From the NCBI GenBank assembly GCA_016840165.1, contig JAEOSU010000076.1:32001-96000 (forward strand): a stretch of 64,000 nt of DNA. The letters are read 5' to 3'. Origin of the DNA: Promethearchaeota archaeon. Lineage in GTDB: Archaea; Asgardarchaeota; Lokiarchaeia; Sigyniarchaeales; SOKP01. The position numbers and the translations under genes were made by a program. The notes under the pieces were generated by a model. The model was given only the letters and a program-made list of their open reading frames with translations, was not told where the DNA came from and did not search any database. Positions 18,429 through 45,364 of this stretch are shown here, in pieces (position 1 is the stretch's first letter; every line of letters starts with the position of its first letter).

Positions 18429-18660
18429 TCTTTCTTCCTTTTTTTAAATATACTATTTCTTGCTTTAATCAAGAAACAACTTAATAGAGTTTATAATTTA
18501 TAATGCTGATTTGTAATCTATTTAATTTTCAGTTTAAGTTAAATGAGATTTGTTGTTAAATTATAATCAGAATCTTTAATTGTTTAATGCGAGTTATAAC
18601 TATTAGAAACATTTATGAAATATTATTAACCCAGAGCTGTGCTCAGTTTTGGGTGAGTAT

Positions 18661-18933
18661 ATGTCAAAGGAGGTATTAAATTTGACTGATAATAAAAAAG
18701 AGATAGACTATGATGAAGAGTTAGATACAAGAGGTTTGTTTTGCCCTGAACCGCTTTTTGAGGTACGAAATTTTTCCGAATCACTTGAAGTAGGGCAATG
18801 CTTAAAAGTAATAGCAGATGATCCTGCTGCAGAGGAAGATTTAACTCGATGGGCTAAAAGAACTGATACTGAAATTGTAGAGTTCTTTAAAGATGGTGAT
18901 GACCTAGTTTTCTACTTTAAGAAAAAAAAATAA
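18661..18933 (+). CDS. tusA: TusA/SirA family sulfur carrier
   Basis: LDTRGLFCPEP and ADDPAAEED. ATG at 18661 preferred because GGGTGA lies just upstream. Confidence 0.9.
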   Translation: MSKEVLNLTDNKKEIDYDEELDTRGLFCPEPLFEVRNFSESLEVGQCLKVIADDPAAEEDLTRWAKRTDTEIVEFFKDGDDLVFYFKKKK

Positions 18934-20141
18934 TGAATAAGATAAAAGAGGTAAATTTGATGAGTTATTATTTAGATAATCAAGCCGCAAAACCCGTCGA
19001 TGAACGTGTTATTAAAGAAATGATGCCGTATTTCAGAGAAAAGTATGCTAATCCTGCTTCACTTCATTGCGATGGTGATATTGCGACTGATGTTTTAGAA
19101 AAATCTCGAAAAAAAGTTGCTGATTTTATTAACGCTCCAAATGCATCTGACATTATATTTACTTCAGGAGCCACCGAATCAAATAATTTAGCTTTAATTG
19201 GTGCTGCGTTAAGATATCAAAAAAAGGGGAAACATATAATTATATCAGAAATCGAGCATATTTCAATCCATAATATTGCAAAATACTTAGAAAGGCAAGG
19301 ATTCAGAGTCAGTAGAGTTGCTGTTGATCAATATGGTATAATTAATTTAGATAAATTAGAGAAATTAATCTCAGATGATACCATTCTGGTTTCAATAACA
19401 ACAGCAAGTAATGAAGTGGGTTCATTACAACCAATTGAAGAAATTAGTAAAATAACTAAGCAGAGAGACATATTATTTCATACAGACGCAGTCCCTAGTT
19501 TGAGTGTCATTCCGATTGATGTCCAAAAAACGCCTTTAGACTTAGTTACCCTCTCTTCAAATGACATTTATGGTCCTAGAGGAGTTGGTGCATTATATAT
19601 AAGGAAAGGAGTTCGAGTAAATCCTATACTTATTGGTGGTGGTCAAGAAAGAGGATTAAGATCAGGTTCTGAAAATATTCCAGGAATTGTAGGATTTGCC
19701 AAGGCTGCAGAAATAGCAAAACGTGAAATGGAAAGTGAAGCTAAGAGATTACAAATATTACGAGATAAGTTAATAAAAAATGTTTTGGAGTCTATTCCAA
19801 ATTCTCATTTAAATGGACACCCCGAAAAAAGATTACCAAATAATGCACATTTTCGATTTGACTATATAGAGGGAGAATCATTGATTTTGGGATTAAAAGA
19901 AAACAATATTGCGGCAGCTACGGGTTCTGCGTGCAGTTCAAAAACGCTAGAAGCTTCTCATACATTGATTTCTTTAGGTTTGCTCCATGAAGAAGCGCAC
20001 GGAAGTCTATTAATCTCATTAGGGAGAACTACTAAGGAATCAGATATCGATAAATTGCTAGAAACCTTGCCTGGAATTGTAAAAAGATTACGAAAATTAT
20101 CTCCGTTAACGCCTCCTGAGATGTTAAAGAAATTAAATTAA
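18933..20141 (+). CDS. iscS: Cysteine desulfurase, IscS type
   Basis: YLDNQA, NPAS.H, FTSGATESNN, EH, FHTDA, GGGQE.G.RSG, catalytic TGSACSS loop. The usual PLP-lysine motif SxHK reads SSND here (see findings). Confidence 0.85.
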   Translation: MNKIKEVNLMSYYLDNQAAKPVDERVIKEMMPYFREKYANPASLHCDGDIATDVLEKSRKKVADFINAPNASDIIFTSGATESNNLALIGAALRYQKKGKHIIISEIEHISIHNIAKYLERQGFRVSRVAVDQYGIINLDKLEKLISDDTILVSITTASNEVGSLQPIEEISKITKQRDILFHTDAVPSLSVIPIDVQKTPLDLVTLSSNDIYGPRGVGALYIRKGVRVNPILIGGGQERGLRSGSENIPGIVGFAKAAEIAKREMESEAKRLQILRDKLIKNVLESIPNSHLNGHPEKRLPNNAHFRFDYIEGESLILGLKENNIAAATGSACSSKTLEASHTLISLGLLHEEAHGSLLISLGRTTKESDIDKLLETLPGIVKRLRKLSPLTPPEMLKKLN

Positions 20142-20155
20142 GGTGAGAAAAAAAA

Positions 20156-20959
20156 GTGAAATCAACTCAATATTCAGATAAAGTATTGGACCATTTTAGG
20201 AATCCAAGAAATGTAGGGGAGATAGAAGATGCTGACGGTGTTGGGAAGGTCGGTAACCCAGTTTGCGGTGATCTGATGTGGATTTACATTAAAGTGGGGA
20301 AAAATGATAAAGGTCAAGAAATAATTGATGATATAAAGTTCAAAACCTTTGGATGTGGCTCAGCAATTTCCACATCATCAATGATAACCGAGATGGTTAA
20401 AGGAATGACTTTGGATGATGCTTATAAGGTGAGTCGACAAGACGTTGCGGATGAGTTAGAAGGATTACCTCCGATTAAGATGCATTGTTCTAATTTAGCA
20501 GCGGATGCACTAAAAGCTGCGATCGACAATTATAGAACGGGAGAATCACCTGAAATAGAAATTGCTACTTCGTGTCAACTAGATGTACGTGTGATCTTAG
20601 GTGTTGATGAGTTTCTAGGTAAAGGTGTCTATAAAGAAATACCATCAGACTTAGAAGAATTACGTGACAAGAGAGTTTTAATAGTAGATTCAGGAGATAC
20701 TTCTTTAGAACTTGCTCTAAAATTGAAAGATTATACTGGCAGAGTAGTAGTTGTAACTTCAGCAAAAACTGTCCCTGGAACTGTAGAGATCAAAAAGAAA
20801 TTAAAACATTCTCCAGTAAAAATTTTACTCGACTCAGAACTTGTAGAAATAAAGGGAGAATTGGATGAAGTTGAAAAAGTTGTTATCCATGATTATGATG
20901 AAGACGAGAAATATGAGCTATTCGTTGACGTAGTAATAATCTTAGATTATAGAGGTTAA
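20156..20959 (+). CDS. iscU: Fe-S scaffold IscU/NifU-N fused to a degenerate thioredoxin-reductase-like Rossmann domain
   Basis: YSDKVLDHF.NPRNVG, GNPVCGD, FGCGSA, LPPIKMHCS. The C-terminal ~125 aa align by eye with the NADPH domain of the TrxR at 44420. Confidence 0.9.
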   Translation: MKSTQYSDKVLDHFRNPRNVGEIEDADGVGKVGNPVCGDLMWIYIKVGKNDKGQEIIDDIKFKTFGCGSAISTSSMITEMVKGMTLDDAYKVSRQDVADELEGLPPIKMHCSNLAADALKAAIDNYRTGESPEIEIATSCQLDVRVILGVDEFLGKGVYKEIPSDLEELRDKRVLIVDSGDTSLELALKLKDYTGRVVVVTSAKTVPGTVEIKKKLKHSPVKILLDSELVEIKGELDEVEKVVIHDYDEDEKYELFVDVVIILDYRG

Positions 20960-21180: not shown

Positions 21181-23580
21181 ATGAAAAAAGTATTAATAGT
21201 TGGCGGAGTTGCTGGTGGTGCATCAGCGGCAGCTCGTTTAAGAAGGTTAATGGAAAATATAGAAATCATCGTATTTGAGAAAGGTTCTTTTGTCTCATTT
21301 GCTAATTGCGGTTTACCTTATTACGTTGGAAATGTAATAAAAGAACGTGATCAGCTAGAACTGATGACCCCGAAAGATTTTTATGATCGATTTAATATCG
21401 ATGTCAGAATAAATCAAGAAGTAATTTCGATTAATCGTAGTCAAAAGACAGTGAACATCATAGATTTAGAGAAAGATAGTGAATATTATTTAGAATATGA
21501 TTATTTAATACTCTCTCCTGGTGCCTCTCCTATCATACCCCCCTTCAAGGGTTTGAAAGATGTTCCAACTTTTACACTTCGGACTATTCCTGATTCTGTA
21601 AAAATAAGAGAATTTGCTGAAGAGAATAAAGTAAAACATGCAACTATCATTGGAGGAGGATATATTGGATTAGAAATGGCAGAAAATCTCAAAGAAAAAG
21701 GAATTCGAGTTAAGATTGTTGAAATGCTTGATCAAGTTTTAGCACCTTTAGATAAAGAAATGGCCCAGTTTATTCATCAAGAATTAATCTTAAATGGAGT
21801 ATGTCTTCAATTAGGAGATGCTGTCGACTCTTTTATGTGCGATGAGAACCAGTGCAACTATGTTATTCCAAAGAGTGGTAAAAAGATTAAAACTGATATG
21901 ATAATTATGGCAATAGGTGTAAAACCGGAGAATAAGTTAGCTATAGATTCAGGTTTAAAAGTTGGTCCGAAAGGACATATCATAGTTGATAATCATATGA
22001 GAACATCTGATCCTTACATTTATGCCGTAGGGGATGCGGTTCAAACTAATAATTATATTACAGACCAATCTGCAGCTATCCCACTTGCGGGTCCAGCAAA
22101 CAAACAAGGTAGAATTGCAGCCGACAACATAGCGGGAAGAAATTCGATATATAGAGGAATCTTAGGAGCTTCTGTACTTAAAGTTTTTGACCTTACAGTT
22201 GCATTTGTTGGATTAAGTGAGAAACAGTTAAAGGGGATGGATATTGATTATGAAAAAATTTATGTTCATCCAAATAATCATGCTGGTTATTATCCTGGTG
22301 CTATTCCGATTACACTTAAATTATTGTTTGAAAAAACAAGTGGTAAAATACTAGGAGCTCAAGCCGTTGGAGGGCCTGGTACTGAAAAACGCATAGATGT
22401 GATATCAACTGCAATAAAGTTTAAGGGAACAGTCTTTGATTTGGAAGAACTAGAGCTTACATATGCTCCCCCTTATGGATCAGCAAAGGATCCGGTCAAT
22501 ATGGCAGGATTTGTGGCATCAAATGTACTACGGGGAGATCATCCTATATGGCAATGGGAAGACTTACCAGAAATTCAACAAAATAATAGTGCATTTATAG
22601 ATGTAAGGACCCCCGAAGAATTTGAAGTTGGGTCGATTGAAAACGCATTGAATATCAATGATTTAGAATTACGACAGAGGTTAAATGAGATTCCAAAAGA
22701 TAAAAATATCTATGTATTTTGTGAAGTGGGTTTTCGTGGTTATTTAGCAACGAGATTATTGCTTCAAGAGGGTTTTGAAAAAGTTCGGAATCTTACAGGA
22801 GGTTATAAACTTTTAAAAACAGCCCAAGCGACTACGCAAGAATTAGCTGAAGCTTGCGGACCACCAGAAGAAATAATGGAAGAGATGATTCAAGAAAAAA
22901 CCACCGAAACTGATGAATTTATGGAAGTTGATGCTTGTGGAATTTCATGTCCAGGTCCTTTAAATGCTCTTATCCAAGGACTTGACAATCTGCCTGAAGG
23001 TAAAAAACTTAAAATATATACGACTGATCCTGGTTTTAAATCAAGTGTAGAAGCATATGTAAAACTCAACGAGGCTGTGAAGTTATTATACTTAGGAAAA
23101 GAAAAGGGAAAGCTAATGGCTATTCTCGAAAAAGGAATCATATCAAAAGAAGAAGTTAAAGCCCCTATTAAAGTGAAAAAGAAAACACGTTCTGAATTAA
23201 GAGGACCAGAAGCACCGCCCTTATCAGAGATAAATGCAACCGAATTATATGACAGAATGGGTACTGAAGATTCACCCGCATTAGTAGTGGATGTTCGAAC
23301 ACCCTCTGAATACCATGAAACAGGTTATATAAAAGACTCAGAGTTGATACCATTAGGAGAGTTAATGAGAGATTTAGGAAAATTAGAGGAGTATAAAGAT
23401 AAAGAAGTCGTAGTCTTATGTGCAGTAGGGGGTCGTTCTTTCATGGCAGCACAGCTTTTAGTGAGGGAGGGTTTTAGAGACGTAAGAAACCTAGTCGGAG
23501 GAATAAAAGCTTGGATAAGACTCGGTTACCCAGTAACTGGAGGCGTGATAGATTCAACCGTAAAATATCTTAAAACCTAA
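21181..23580 (+). CDS. CoA-disulfide/persulfide reductase fused to rhodanese, TusA and a second rhodanese domain
   Basis: GGVAGG, SFANCGLPY, GGGYIGLE, YAPP; rhodanese DVRTPEE...FCEVGFRG; TusA DACGISCPGP...DPGF; rhodanese DVRTPSE...LCAVGGRS. Confidence 0.92.
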   Translation: MKKVLIVGGVAGGASAAARLRRLMENIEIIVFEKGSFVSFANCGLPYYVGNVIKERDQLELMTPKDFYDRFNIDVRINQEVISINRSQKTVNIIDLEKDSEYYLEYDYLILSPGASPIIPPFKGLKDVPTFTLRTIPDSVKIREFAEENKVKHATIIGGGYIGLEMAENLKEKGIRVKIVEMLDQVLAPLDKEMAQFIHQELILNGVCLQLGDAVDSFMCDENQCNYVIPKSGKKIKTDMIIMAIGVKPENKLAIDSGLKVGPKGHIIVDNHMRTSDPYIYAVGDAVQTNNYITDQSAAIPLAGPANKQGRIAADNIAGRNSIYRGILGASVLKVFDLTVAFVGLSEKQLKGMDIDYEKIYVHPNNHAGYYPGAIPITLKLLFEKTSGKILGAQAVGGPGTEKRIDVISTAIKFKGTVFDLEELELTYAPPYGSAKDPVNMAGFVASNVLRGDHPIWQWEDLPEIQQNNSAFIDVRTPEEFEVGSIENALNINDLELRQRLNEIPKDKNIYVFCEVGFRGYLATRLLLQEGFEKVRNLTGGYKLLKTAQATTQELAEACGPPEEIMEEMIQEKTTETDEFMEVDACGISCPGPLNALIQGLDNLPEGKKLKIYTTDPGFKSSVEAYVKLNEAVKLLYLGKEKGKLMAILEKGIISKEEVKAPIKVKKKTRSELRGPEAPPLSEINATELYDRMGTEDSPALVVDVRTPSEYHETGYIKDSELIPLGELMRDLGKLEEYKDKEVVVLCAVGGRSFMAAQLLVREGFRDVRNLVGGIKAWIRLGYPVTGGVIDSTVKYLKT

Positions 23581-43025: not shown

Positions 43026-43709
43026 TTGTCTCAGGATGATAAATATCGAGAAATAATTAAAAAAGAAATGGCAAAATTAACTAAACTTGTAAAGCTAAAA
43101 GTATTCACATCTCAAAGTGCTAAGCCAGATGGTACAAAAGTAAGAGCTTGCATGGATTGTGGACAATTTATGTCATTATTGAGAATCTATGAAGAAAATT
43201 CTAATGGTTTACTTACTATTGAAGAGCTTAGTATTGATGAGAATCCAGAATTTGCGAAGAGATATGACATTCAAAGAGTCCCAACAATATTATTTATCGA
43301 TAATCATGGAAATGAACTAATTAGATATTTAGCAGCTCCTCAGGGTGGAGAAATTCAACCATTTATTCAAGCAATATTTACATTCGCAGGGGCTCCTAAT
43401 TATTATGAAGCTGCAATAAAACAGAATCTTAACAGAATTTCACCAGCCATAATCAAAGTCATGATTACTAACTCATGTCCATATTGTCCTCAAGTTGTTT
43501 CTATAAGTAATCAATTTGCTCTTGCAGCTGAGGGAAAAATTCGGACGATTATTATCGATATTTTAGCAAATCCGGATATCGGTCAATATTATGACGCTTC
43601 AGGAGTTCCATATACTATCATAAATGATAAAAAAACTTTAGCAGGTATGGTAGGTCCGAATGAGATAATAAGAGAGTTAATTGGGAGTAATAAAAGGGTA
43701 CAATATTAA
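43026..43709 (+). CDS. Protein disulfide oxidoreductase (PDO), copy 2
   Basis: CMDC, RVPT, PQGGE, CPYCP, GVP; GAGGTGA SD. Confidence 0.9.
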   Translation: MSQDDKYREIIKKEMAKLTKLVKLKVFTSQSAKPDGTKVRACMDCGQFMSLLRIYEENSNGLLTIEELSIDENPEFAKRYDIQRVPTILFIDNHGNELIRYLAAPQGGEIQPFIQAIFTFAGAPNYYEAAIKQNLNRISPAIIKVMITNSCPYCPQVVSISNQFALAAEGKIRTIIIDILANPDIGQYYDASGVPYTIINDKKTLAGMVGPNEIIRELIGSNKRVQY

Positions 43710-43742
43710 TTTTAAATATATAGTTCTTGAAAAAGGAGAGAT

Positions 43743-44396
43743 GTGATAATTTTGCCCGCGTCATATATTATTGAAAAAATGTTAAAGGAAGAAATGAGTA
43801 AAATATTGCATCCAATTACAGTTAAAGTGTTTATTAACGAGAAAAATCAATCACAAACAAGTGAAATTATATCGAGACTAAAAAAGATTGAAGAGATTTC
43901 CAATGATAAGTTACAATTTGAGATATTATCTATTCATAATAAGAATGATTTAGTTGAAAAATATCAAATAGAAAGGTTACCTACAATATTATTTACTGAT
44001 GCTGAAGGAAAAGAGCTTATTCGTTATTTATCAGTACCGCAAGGCAGCGAACTTAGACCGTTTATCCAAGCACTTCAATTACTCTCTGGTGAGAAAAACT
44101 ATTATGAACCAGTCCTTAGAGAAAATGTGAGGAATATTAAATTTTCAAAAATTAAAGTGATGGTATCTAAATCGTGTGCTTATTGCCCTGAATTGATAAC
44201 CCTTGTGTCCCAGTTTGCCTTGGGAACCTCGGGAAAAATTAAAGCAGAAATTATTGATATATGCGAAAATCCAGATATTGGAAATCAATATAATATTGAA
44301 ACGGTTCCCTATATGGTGATTAATGATGGGAGCCCTATTATAGGTTTAATTAGTCCCTATGAATTATTGGAGCAAATTTTAAGTAATGGTACATAA
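43743..44396 (+). CDS. Protein disulfide oxidoreductase (PDO), copy 3, lacking the N-terminal CxxC
   Basis: RLPT, PQGSE, CAYCP, TVP; no Cys in the first thioredoxin unit. Confidence 0.85.
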   Translation: MIILPASYIIEKMLKEEMSKILHPITVKVFINEKNQSQTSEIISRLKKIEEISNDKLQFEILSIHNKNDLVEKYQIERLPTILFTDAEGKELIRYLSVPQGSELRPFIQALQLLSGEKNYYEPVLRENVRNIKFSKIKVMVSKSCAYCPELITLVSQFALGTSGKIKAEIIDICENPDIGNQYNIETVPYMVINDGSPIIGLISPYELLEQILSNGT

Positions 44397-44419
44397 AGTT
44401 TGAATTATGAGGTTGAAAT

Positions 44420-45364
44420 ATGCTAAATATTGATATGGAAGGAATTGATTTAGAGAAGGTTTATGACCTTATAGTTTTAGGAGGAGGTCCTACTGCAATC
44501 GGATGTGCGATATATGCGAAACGCTTTGCAATGGATGTGTTGATAATTGGGAAAACTTATGGAGGTTTAATTGCAACAACTCATGTCGTAGAGAATTATC
44601 CTGCTATTTCCTCAATTAGTGGCCAAGGATTAATGGAAATGTTTAAAGAACATATGAATTCCCTCAATATTCCTTATATCTCCGATGAGATTAAGTCTAT
44701 TGAAAAATTAGATGACTACTTTGAATTACACTCTTTTTTCCAAAACTTTAAGGCTTATTCTGTATGTATAGCGACCGGATCAATTCGAAGAAAGCTGGGT
44801 ATATCAGGAGAAGAGGAATTTGCAGGAAGAGGTGTTTCTTACTGTGCAACTTGTGACGGTCCTTTTTATAAAGATAAGGTGGTCTGTGTTATCGGGGGAA
44901 GTGATTCTGCTGCAAAGGAAGCACTATTCCTAGCCCAAAATACAAGCAAGGTTTATATGATATATCGAGGCGAGGAAATACGAGCAGAACCAATAAATAA
45001 AAAGAGAGTTCTCGAAAACGACAAAATAGAAATAATATACAAAACAAATGTAGTTGAAATTATCGGAGAAGGAAAAGTAAAATCAATAGTTTTCGATAAT
45101 GGAAAAAAATTAGAGATTGATGGCGTTTTCATTGAAATTGGCTCGATTCCCAACTCTCAGATTGCAAAACGTATTGGAGTAGGACTTAATGAAAAAGACG
45201 AGATCAAAATTAATCGAAAATCTGAAACCAATATTCCAGGATTATTTGCTGCGGGAGATGTTGCTGACGCACCGTTCAAGCAAGCAATAACAGGGGTGGC
45301 AGAGGGTGTTATTGCAGCCTATTCTGCTTTTGATTATGTAAAAGAAATGAATATTGAATATTAG
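44420..45364 (+). CDS. trxB: Thioredoxin reductase
   Basis: GGGPTA, VENYP, IATG, GRGVSYCATCDG, GGSDSA, YR, FAAGD, QAIT. Confidence 0.95.
   Translation: MLNIDMEGIDLEKVYDLIVLGGGPTAIGCAIYAKRFAMDVLIIGKTYGGLIATTHVVENYPAISSISGQGLMEMFKEHMNSLNIPYISDEIKSIEKLDDYFELHSFFQNFKAYSVCIATGSIRRKLGISGEEEFAGRGVSYCATCDGPFYKDKVVCVIGGSDSAAKEALFLAQNTSKVYMIYRGEEIRAEPINKKRVLENDKIEIIYKTNVVEIIGEGKVKSIVFDNGKKLEIDGVFIEIGSIPNSQIAKRIGVGLNEKDEIKINRKSETNIPGLFAAGDVADAPFKQAITGVAEGVIAAYSAFDYVKEMNIEY

Follow-up and report, generated by a model that had tools for sequence, protein, structure and literature searches.

We analysed a 64,000-nucleotide stretch of DNA from a Promethearchaeota archaeon (Lokiarchaeia, order Sigyniarchaeales; assembly GCA_016840165.1, contig JAEOSU010000076.1, positions 32,001 to 96,000), hereafter called the window, and in it a gene that joins the iron-sulfur (Fe-S) cluster scaffold IscU to a domain with the fold of the NADPH-binding part of a thioredoxin reductase (TrxR). 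This fusion is the last gene of a TusA-IscS-IscU operon. It had been noticed in a sequence-only reading of the window, made by a model without database searches. The gene and its parts are as follows (window coordinates; aa, amino acids; short forms are fusions of the window's type, long forms are fusions of IscU to a full-length flavoprotein, and free forms are unfused TrxR-like relatives).

20156..20959, + strand: fusion gene, IscU plus relic NAD(P)H domain; 267 aa, 29.6 kDa, pI 4.8
20168..20539, + strand: IscU (NifU_N) scaffold domain, aa 5-128 (Pfam E 7e-48; TIGR03419)
20540..20617, + strand: linker, aa 129-154 (26 aa), from the alignment of short, long and free forms
20573-20575, + strand: linker Cys140 (TSCQ), from the sequence
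20618..20956, + strand: relic NAD(P)H-type Rossmann domain, aa 155-267 (TIGR01292 positions 94-232; Foldseek)
20687..20704, + strand: decayed dinucleotide fingerprint DSGDTS (GGGDSA or GNGDQA in relatives)
20753..20767, + strand: VTSAK at the H-R-R 2'-phosphate site of NADPH-dependent relatives, from the alignment
20897..20917, + strand: conserved acidic loop DEDEKYE, from the alignments

The open reading frame (ORF) starts with GTG, and a Shine-Dalgarno-like GGTGA motif lies 9 nucleotides upstream.

The two domains and their distribution

The first half of the protein is an IscU with all its working parts. It matched the NifU_N profile (PF01592) over aa 5-128 with 162.3 bits (cut-off 22; E 7e-48) and the Fe-S scaffold model TIGR03419 with 196.7 bits, above the cut-off of 187.9. 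The ligand residues C37, D39, C67, H110 and C111 are present, and the LPPVK-type chaperone motif reads LPPIK at aa 104-108; the intact IscU that had been recognised from three cysteines and the LPPIK-MHC segment was thus borne out. Conservation was counted in 23 representatives below 85% identity, 12 of them outside the window's family, and the five ligands are invariant in this set. Foldseek matched the predicted IscU domain to 7c8m and 4eb5_C at 66-67% identity, and the fold agreed with those of 7c8m, 4eb5_C and 3lvl_A at target-normalised template modelling (TM) scores of 0.83-0.92 and root-mean-square deviations (rmsd) of 1.1-2.3 Å. By every defining feature tested, the protein belongs to the IscU family.

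The second half comes from a reductase family. Pfam placed a Pyr_redox domain at aa 173-245 (28.2 bits, cut-off 22; E 2.9e-6) behind NifU_N, the very combination that the sequence-only reading had proposed to look for. The thioredoxin-disulfide reductase model TIGR01292 aligned with aa 124-262 at its positions 94-232 of 300 (E 6.7e-13), a span that takes in the NADPH domain with both crossover strands but leaves out the flavin adenine dinucleotide (FAD) domain proper; the score of 48.1 bits is far from the cut-off of 343.45. The PDB sequence matches of the C-terminal domain (C-domain) were 2zbw (the best, E 1.6e-7, NAD domain only), 4up3 and 5xhu, and the alignment to the window's own TrxR (44420-45364), by which the domain had first been recognised, was reproduced at 27% identity over 110 aa (pairwise E 2e-7). 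AlphaFold2, given an alignment of 21 sequences, predicted for the protein alone an IscU fold and a TrxR NADPH fold, two folded domains with a predicted local distance difference test (pLDDT) score of ~90 each (overall pLDDT 84.8, predicted TM score (pTM) 0.50), and a disordered segment at aa 137-144 (pLDDT <50). For the C-domain, Foldseek returned the NADPH domains of TrxR and of TrxR-type ferredoxin-NADP+ reductase (FNR) (3f8d, 5mjk, 3ab1, 2zbw) at rmsd 1.6-2.2 Å over 118-123 residues.

As had been read from the letters, the FAD domain is missing and the glycine loop is altered. The alignment showed no FAD-domain segment on either side of the NAD(P)H domain, and the ORF stops right at the expected start of the FAD domain's C-terminal part. 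At the GxGxxA position, where the window protein has DSGDTS, the first Gly is never Gly among the 23 representatives (D in 14, H in 4, Y in 4 and F in 1); the third Gly and the following Asp (G180, D181) are kept in 22 of the 23, and Ala is replaced by Ser (S183) in 22. The H-R-R site has lost its Arg pair and reads T (23/23)-S/P-A/S-K, TSA in the window. The position of the redox-active CxxC reads YKEIPSD, and no Cys was found in the C-domain of 20 of the 23 representatives. The additional linker cysteine that had been pointed out in TSCQ is C140, and a linker cysteine occurs in 20/23 representatives (9/12 outside the window's family), at varying positions. Assignment of the whole protein to TrxR, FNR or NifU proper was rejected in each case, as it fails the defining features tested. 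The C-terminal domain is apparently a cofactor-less relic, with the fold of a reductase domain but not its cofactor motifs.

Relic does not mean decaying. R173, R196, T201, K222, E240 and D258 are invariant among the representatives, the loop D248-E249-D250-E251-x-Y253-E254 is nearly so, and the C-domain as a whole is acidic (25 D+E vs 18 K+R, pI 4.9). Within the window's family the median pairwise ratio of nonsynonymous to synonymous substitutions (dN/dS; the pairs are not independent) was 0.04 for IscU, 0.11 for the linker and ~0.13 for the C-domain, so that this domain is being maintained by purifying selection.

The fusion is widespread. In a survey of 201 genomes sampled across the phylum, it was found at full length in 40/40 genomes of the window's Lokiarchaeial family and in 3/3 of a second family of the same order. 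Thorarchaeota had a match to it in 40/43 genomes, with full-length proteins of 53-61% identity among the matches listed. More than 120 protein clusters of at least 79% identity have the same 267-aa architecture, a soil-metagenome contig from an independent study runs across the stretch in full, and the junction between IscU and the C-domain is bridged by contigs from three metatranscriptome studies; because this RNA-library evidence consists of contigs only, it shows presence, a single transcript being unproven and DNA carry-over possible. The fear that the fusion might be a singleton or an assembly chimera is dispelled by these occurrences. Databases label the proteins plain 'NifU', 'IscU' or 'iron-sulfur cluster assembly scaffold protein', and our literature searches found no published description of an IscU-TrxR fusion, in keeping with the earlier statement that the architecture is not known from characterised systems.

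C-domains 65-84% identical to that of the window also turned up in genome records labelled Hodarchaeota, Hermodarchaeota, Thorarchaeota and even Nanopelagicaceae (L025, L038, L039, L045, L051, L057, L060, L064, L071), which points to mislabelled or contaminated bins.

The operon and its lysine-less IscS

The genes around the fusion are the following.

18649..18933, + strand: TusA-family sulfur carrier, first gene of the operon (Pfam TusA E 6.6e-19)
18933..20141, + strand: IscS-like protein of the Archaeoglobus fulgidus type (Pfam Aminotran_5 E 1e-78)
21181..23580, + strand: CoA-disulfide-reductase-like flavoprotein plus rhodanese-TusA-rhodanese, 799 aa (Pfam)

The TusA stop and the IscS start overlap by 1 nucleotide, and 14 nucleotides separate IscS from the fusion. 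In the operon's IscS, the S-x-H-K motif (S-G/A-H-K) that carries the lysine for pyridoxal phosphate (PLP) is replaced by SSND (~19540-19580), and the Cys loop GSACSS is intact. The same SSND was found in 13/14 aligned IscS proteins of TusA/IscS/IscU loci, namely in those read from Loki, Thor and Jord genomes and from three further Asgard families; the Odin-like one has SANS, also without Lys. Elsewhere in these genomes, second copies of IscS retain S-x-H-K or have H-L. The IscS of A. fulgidus has SSND in a published alignment (PMC7585200 supplement). According to papers cited by PMC7585200, it has no desulfurase activity and gives a Cys ligand to the cluster on IscU. Because the operon IscS shares SSND with A. 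fulgidus, and because it adjoins IscU in the same orientation with the PLP-binding Lys replaced and the Cys loop kept, we classify the window's system by sequence as an Archaeoglobus-type (MIS-like) IscS-IscU pair, whose IscS is predicted to be unable to use PLP chemistry.

Among the Asgard loci read (Loki, Thor, Jord, Odin-like and others), most have TusA upstream of IscS-IscU. Thorarchaeota, the second Loki family and some of the genera in the window's family have a DsrE/DsrF-family gene of 120-123 aa between TusA and IscS (for example L013:4451-4813, L015:4387-4758 and L021:8042-8404); the window's own locus has none at this place. The 799-aa gene, whose flavoprotein part is of the CoA-disulfide-reductase/NADH-oxidase type, follows the fusion only in loci of the window's own family and is absent from the Thor, second Loki family and Jord loci; it probably belongs to the same sulfur-trafficking neighbourhood, yet is not a conserved partner. 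In the operon no frataxin-like gene was seen, and the loci read from Loki, Thor and Jord have no conserved thioredoxin-fold gene near it.

One genus of the window's family has genes resembling DnaJ and DnaK, judged by the N-terminal part of their sequences alone, just past the TusA side of its operon (L021:9018-11977); they may be there by chance or may be tied to the LPPIK chaperone motif. The window's genome has two further NifU_N genes that lack the extension (G000:C51:33112-33486, - strand, 164 bits; G000:C88:2055-2420, - strand, 101 bits), so the fusion is not its only scaffold candidate.

Origin and possible role of the C-terminal domain

The relatives that bear most on the origin of the domain are themselves fusions. 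In Jordarchaeaceae/Freyarchaeum, IscU is joined to a complete, CxxC-less TrxR-like flavoprotein in 6/6 genomes of the family. The protein at L023:6001-7344 (P0242, 448 aa), which sits in a TusA-IscS locus, has the motifs GGGPAG, GNGDQA and GIYAAGD and no CxxC; Pfam found NifU_N and, over 291/291 profile positions, Pyr_redox_2 in it, and its AlphaFold2 model has a pLDDT of 82.9. About 100 further clusters of long fusions, of 433-454 aa and 49-58% identity, come from Methanoperedens, Methanosarcinaceae, Methanosarcinales and Methanocomedens (ANME-2a). Within the Asgard archaea, long fusions were found in only one sampled family.

In the complete Freyarchaeum genome, the 448-aa fusion ORF is continuous (L023:6001-7347; G038:C1:2004009-2005352). 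One public record gives only a 326-aa 'NAD(P)/FAD-dependent oxidoreductase' with an internal start (P0243), which hides the fusion.

The window protein aligns with the IscU of the long fusions followed by their IAT strand, NAD domain and return strand. Its linker IATSCQLDVRVILGVDEF aligns gap-free with IATGTLPLACGIPGENEF of the long proteins, and I136-A137-T138 in it match in register the 'IATG' strand in the FAD domain of the flavoprotein (the IATG...I-G-EF crossover strand). Short and long forms share a signature, 'VEK-V..HD.DEDE.YEL.VD' in the former and 'VEK-V...D..EDE.[FIL][EQD][LMQ].VD' in the latter, that the free relatives lack; its EDE-x-aromatic/aliphatic-E/Q loop is common to all full-length IscU-flavoprotein fusions and absent from free TrxR-like proteins. 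When a profile of the short domain was used to rank proteins, long fusions took all of the top 15 places (76-90 bits), with the best other TrxR-like proteins of the library behind them, and the window's own TrxR was among the poorest matches (40 bits, set against 82-90 bits of long fusions). Partner, gene order and operon are the same in the short forms and in the long forms of Jordarchaeia. Finally, since the NAD domain interrupts the FAD domain as an insert, its source must have been a complete flavoprotein. Because of the signature, the profile ranking, the identical gene context and this structural argument, a deletion derivative of a full-length fusion is the simplest account of the short form, and we consider this direction of evolution likely.

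A search with the C-domain in a library of 1.84 billion representative proteins gave 121 matches, of which the strongest are the same fusion or its fragments and the next-best full-length proteins are CxxC-less TrxR-like flavoproteins. Many matches of 100-200 aa were rejected as stand-alone domains, being N-truncated or frameshifted calls of the same fusion; a 2038-aa match (P0123) was discarded as a repeat or junk protein. In the window's genome, our search found neither a close free homologue of the long fusion's flavoprotein nor an evident 'FAD-only' partner able to complement the relic in trans. In Thor genomes, to judge by contig numbers, free TrxR-like relatives lie on contigs other than that of the fusion.

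In a tree of NAD domains, the short forms make up one clade (100/100) on a long branch, and the long fusions of Methanosarcinales and Jordarchaeia another (92/92), beside free CxxC-less Asgard proteins. The canonical TrxRs with CxxC form a clade (100/99) that excludes the short domain. Since its nearest relatives are CxxC-less as well, the description of the CxxC as lost holds for its absence, and as history is likely wrong: the motif was probably never present in the ancestry of the short form.

Taken together, these data fit a pseudo-enzyme domain on a scaffold, and as a whole we find the following account fairly probable. The gene product would be the scaffold subunit of an Archaeoglobus-type pair, a lysine-less IscS with IscU, encoded in a TusA-(DsrE)-IscS-IscU operon, and its last 113 residues with part of the linker would come from a CxxC-less TrxR-like flavoprotein. 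In the long fusions, this flavoprotein presumably feeds reducing equivalents to the scaffold, where they might serve to reduce to sulfide the S0 that arrives via TusA, DsrE and the IscS Cys loop, or for reductive [2Fe-2S] coupling. In the lineage of Lokiarchaeia and Thorarchaeia, both halves of the FAD domain would then have been deleted and the nucleotide fingerprint would have decayed, with the middle domain kept under purifying selection for a role in which it catalyses nothing. Such a role could be docking or positioning in the IscS-IscU complex via the acidic loop, which would contact either IscS or an outside donor of electrons or sulfur; as this loop is the most conserved derived feature and is inherited from the long fusions, the retained role would be a non-catalytic one that existed before. 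The cysteine in the flexible linker may assist in cluster or persulfide handling.

Several results weigh against this account. The trees of NAD domains do not join the short with the long forms, their backbone at the short clade lacking resolution. In approximately unbiased (AU) tests, constraining short and long forms together cost 0.5 to 3.6 log-likelihood units (p 0.48 and 0.40), which means that this grouping is merely not rejected, and making the short forms sisters of the CxxC TrxRs cost 5.5 units (p 0.28), equally not rejected. In the tree of IscU domains, one clade (94/93) with no inner resolution holds the short fusions, the long fusions and, from three other families, the plain IscUs encoded in TusA-IscS-IscU loci; with plain IscUs inside it, a single fusion event needs later de-fusion or loss in some lineages. 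Some long fusions of Methanosarcinaceae and ANME-2a (P0506, P0508, P0509, P0511, P0519) have themselves decayed motifs, with V-T-x-E at the H-R-R site and the FAD 'GD' changed to G-N, so dependence on pyridine nucleotides may have begun to go before the FAD domain was lost, and the reductase role of the long forms is itself presumed. As to docking, a pTM of 0.50 fixes no position of the relic domain relative to IscU, and the kept G180-D181-x-S183 with the invariant R196, T201 and K222 could still make a ligand site. In an exploratory scan of IscS, 7 columns were basic specifically in fusion-linked IscS, compared with 2 for the opposite pattern, and the charge is reversed at positions 144 and 199; this is a weak hint of a complementary basic patch on IscS, confounded by phylogeny and multiple testing.

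The poor resolution of both trees, together with the restriction of long fusions to one sampled Asgard family, would suit an independent origin, in which an ancestor of Loki and Thor captured the middle domain or fused and trimmed a neighbouring gene, the likeness to the long fusions being convergence. We regard this as unlikely: it leaves the acidic-loop signature, which free relatives lack, the first ranks of the long fusions in the profile search and the common partner, order and operon as coincidences, the clade of short and long forms was not rejected, and, the FAD domain being discontinuous, either route needs a whole flavoprotein as precursor.

A further alternative takes the domain to be alive, its remodelled site binding a nucleotide (NAD(P)H, an ADP-ribose-like compound or another), so that it senses the redox or energy state and gates the assembly of clusters. 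The Rossmann fold predicted with high confidence, the strong purifying selection and the kept positions listed above, R173 among them, speak for such a sensor. A bulky or charged residue always stands at the first Gly of GxGxxA, though, the H-R-R site is gone, and no hydride-transfer acceptor is left once the FAD domain is missing, all of which makes a live nucleotide site quite improbable.

In the sequence-only reading, the domain was a degenerate TrxR module that keeps its thioredoxin-binding surface and brings PDO or glutaredoxin to the scaffold, either to supply reductant or to accept the cluster. Monothiol glutaredoxins are known to take over clusters from IscU, the C-domain has the fold of the TrxR NADPH domain, and the genome has two PDO-like proteins and a TrxR at 43026-45364. 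That idea rested on descent from a thioredoxin-binding enzyme, and with a CxxC-less ancestor its rationale is gone: the closest relatives are TrxR-like proteins that are not thioredoxin-reducing enzymes, the canonical TrxR clade excludes the domain, and the window's TrxR is among its weakest matches. The PDO-PDO-TrxR cluster is moreover 23 kb away and not syntenic, and the Loki, Thor and Jord loci offer no conserved thioredoxin-fold neighbour, so we hold this recruitment to be very improbable. The cluster consists of tandem PDO-like double-thioredoxin-fold proteins followed by a CxxC TrxR with the fingerprint GGSDSA and YRG at the H-R-R site; on these motifs, a reductant other than NADPH is a possibility for that enzyme.

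Equally hard to credit is an iron-binding or iron-delivering module of the frataxin/IscX kind in place of a docking device, for which the conserved D248-E249-D250-E251, Y253-E254, E240 and D258, the acidity of the domain and the lack of a frataxin-like gene in the operon could be cited, since acidic loops are also typical of protein-protein contacts and the same loop occurs in the full-length flavoprotein fusions, where redox docking is the simpler reading.

We return to the pseudo-enzyme domain derived from a full-length fusion. That the relic would act by docking in the IscS-IscU complex we suggest tentatively, as a possibility somewhat short of probable. More doubtful is the wider scenario in which archaea with a lysine-less IscS evolved a scaffold with its own flavoreductase, which would survive in Methanoperedens, ANME-2 and Jordarchaeia, and in which the pseudo-enzyme now acts as a clamp or regulator of IscS-IscU through its acidic loop and linker cysteine. 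If this scenario were true, the clamp would be comparable in function to frataxin, IscX or ferredoxin docking while independent of them in origin, and would represent a class of accessory module new to Fe-S biogenesis. The question it touches is how sulfur and electrons are supplied to minimal archaeal IscS-IscU systems, whose IscS cannot make persulfide from cysteine, and the flavoreductase-bearing scaffolds and their widespread non-catalytic derivative would be two testable handles on it. As the short form is found in the IscS-IscU operon of nearly all sampled genomes of Lokiarchaeia and Thorarchaeia, reconstructions of Fe-S biogenesis for the archaeal relatives of eukaryotes should include it.

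Comparison with known systems

NifU proper (TIGR02000) resembles the window protein in having a scaffold domain with an extra redox-type module at its C-terminal side. The window protein, however, scored 155.9 bits against a cut-off of 273.3 and covered only positions 3-123 of the 290 of the model, and NifU has appended [2Fe-2S] and Nfu domains, to which the Rossmann relic is unrelated.

Low-Mr TrxR and TrxR-type FNR (3f8d, 5mjk, 2zbw, 3ab1) are alike in the fold and sequence of the NADPH domain. Having no FAD domain, CxxC, intact GxGxxA or H-R-R site, the window protein is no enzyme member of these families. It shares the absence of CxxC with the CxxC-less TrxR-like flavoproteins, but lacks their FAD domain. 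The long fusions of Jordarchaeia/Freyarchaeum and Methanosarcinales, uncharacterised proteins annotated 'NifU' or 'thioredoxin reductase', are closer in having an N-terminal IscU, the same family of NAD domain, the EDE loop and no CxxC; they differ in that, at 433-454 aa, they keep both FAD halves (GxGxxG and GD motifs) and GxGxxA, which the window protein does not.

The supply of electrons to ISCU by ferredoxin and ferredoxin reductase in the ISC systems of bacteria and mitochondria, as in the FDX2-bound core ISC complex (8rmc, whose chain D is a match of the IscU fold), can be likened to the fusions only by analogy. The window protein has no ferredoxin domain, no homology to FdxR/Arh1 and no flavin domain of any kind. 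The long fusions would place a flavoreductase of the NAD(P)H type beside the scaffold; of this arrangement, the relic may have retained the part used for docking.

In PMC7585200, the iscSU1 cluster of Methanosarcina acetivorans (MA0807-MA0810) is described with a SirA-like (TusA) gene, a DsrE-superfamily gene and an IscS1 without the PLP lysine, a gene set that, on this description, is that of Thor and some Loki loci. The same source gives IscU1 a mass of 24.2 kDa, compared with 13.9-14.0 kDa for IscU2 and IscU3. This cluster looks like a cultured counterpart of the system; with respect to the extra ~10 kDa of its IscU1 (MA0807), it is a lead and not a match.

The nearest characterised system is IscS-IscU of A. 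fulgidus (PDB 4eb5, 4eb7). The window's IscU is 64-67% identical to 4eb5_C and 4eb7_C, and the IscS next to it has the same SSND replacement as that of A. fulgidus. The difference lies in what follows the scaffold: the solved A. fulgidus chain has ~138 residues and no C-terminal domain, whereas the window protein continues for 139 residues more.

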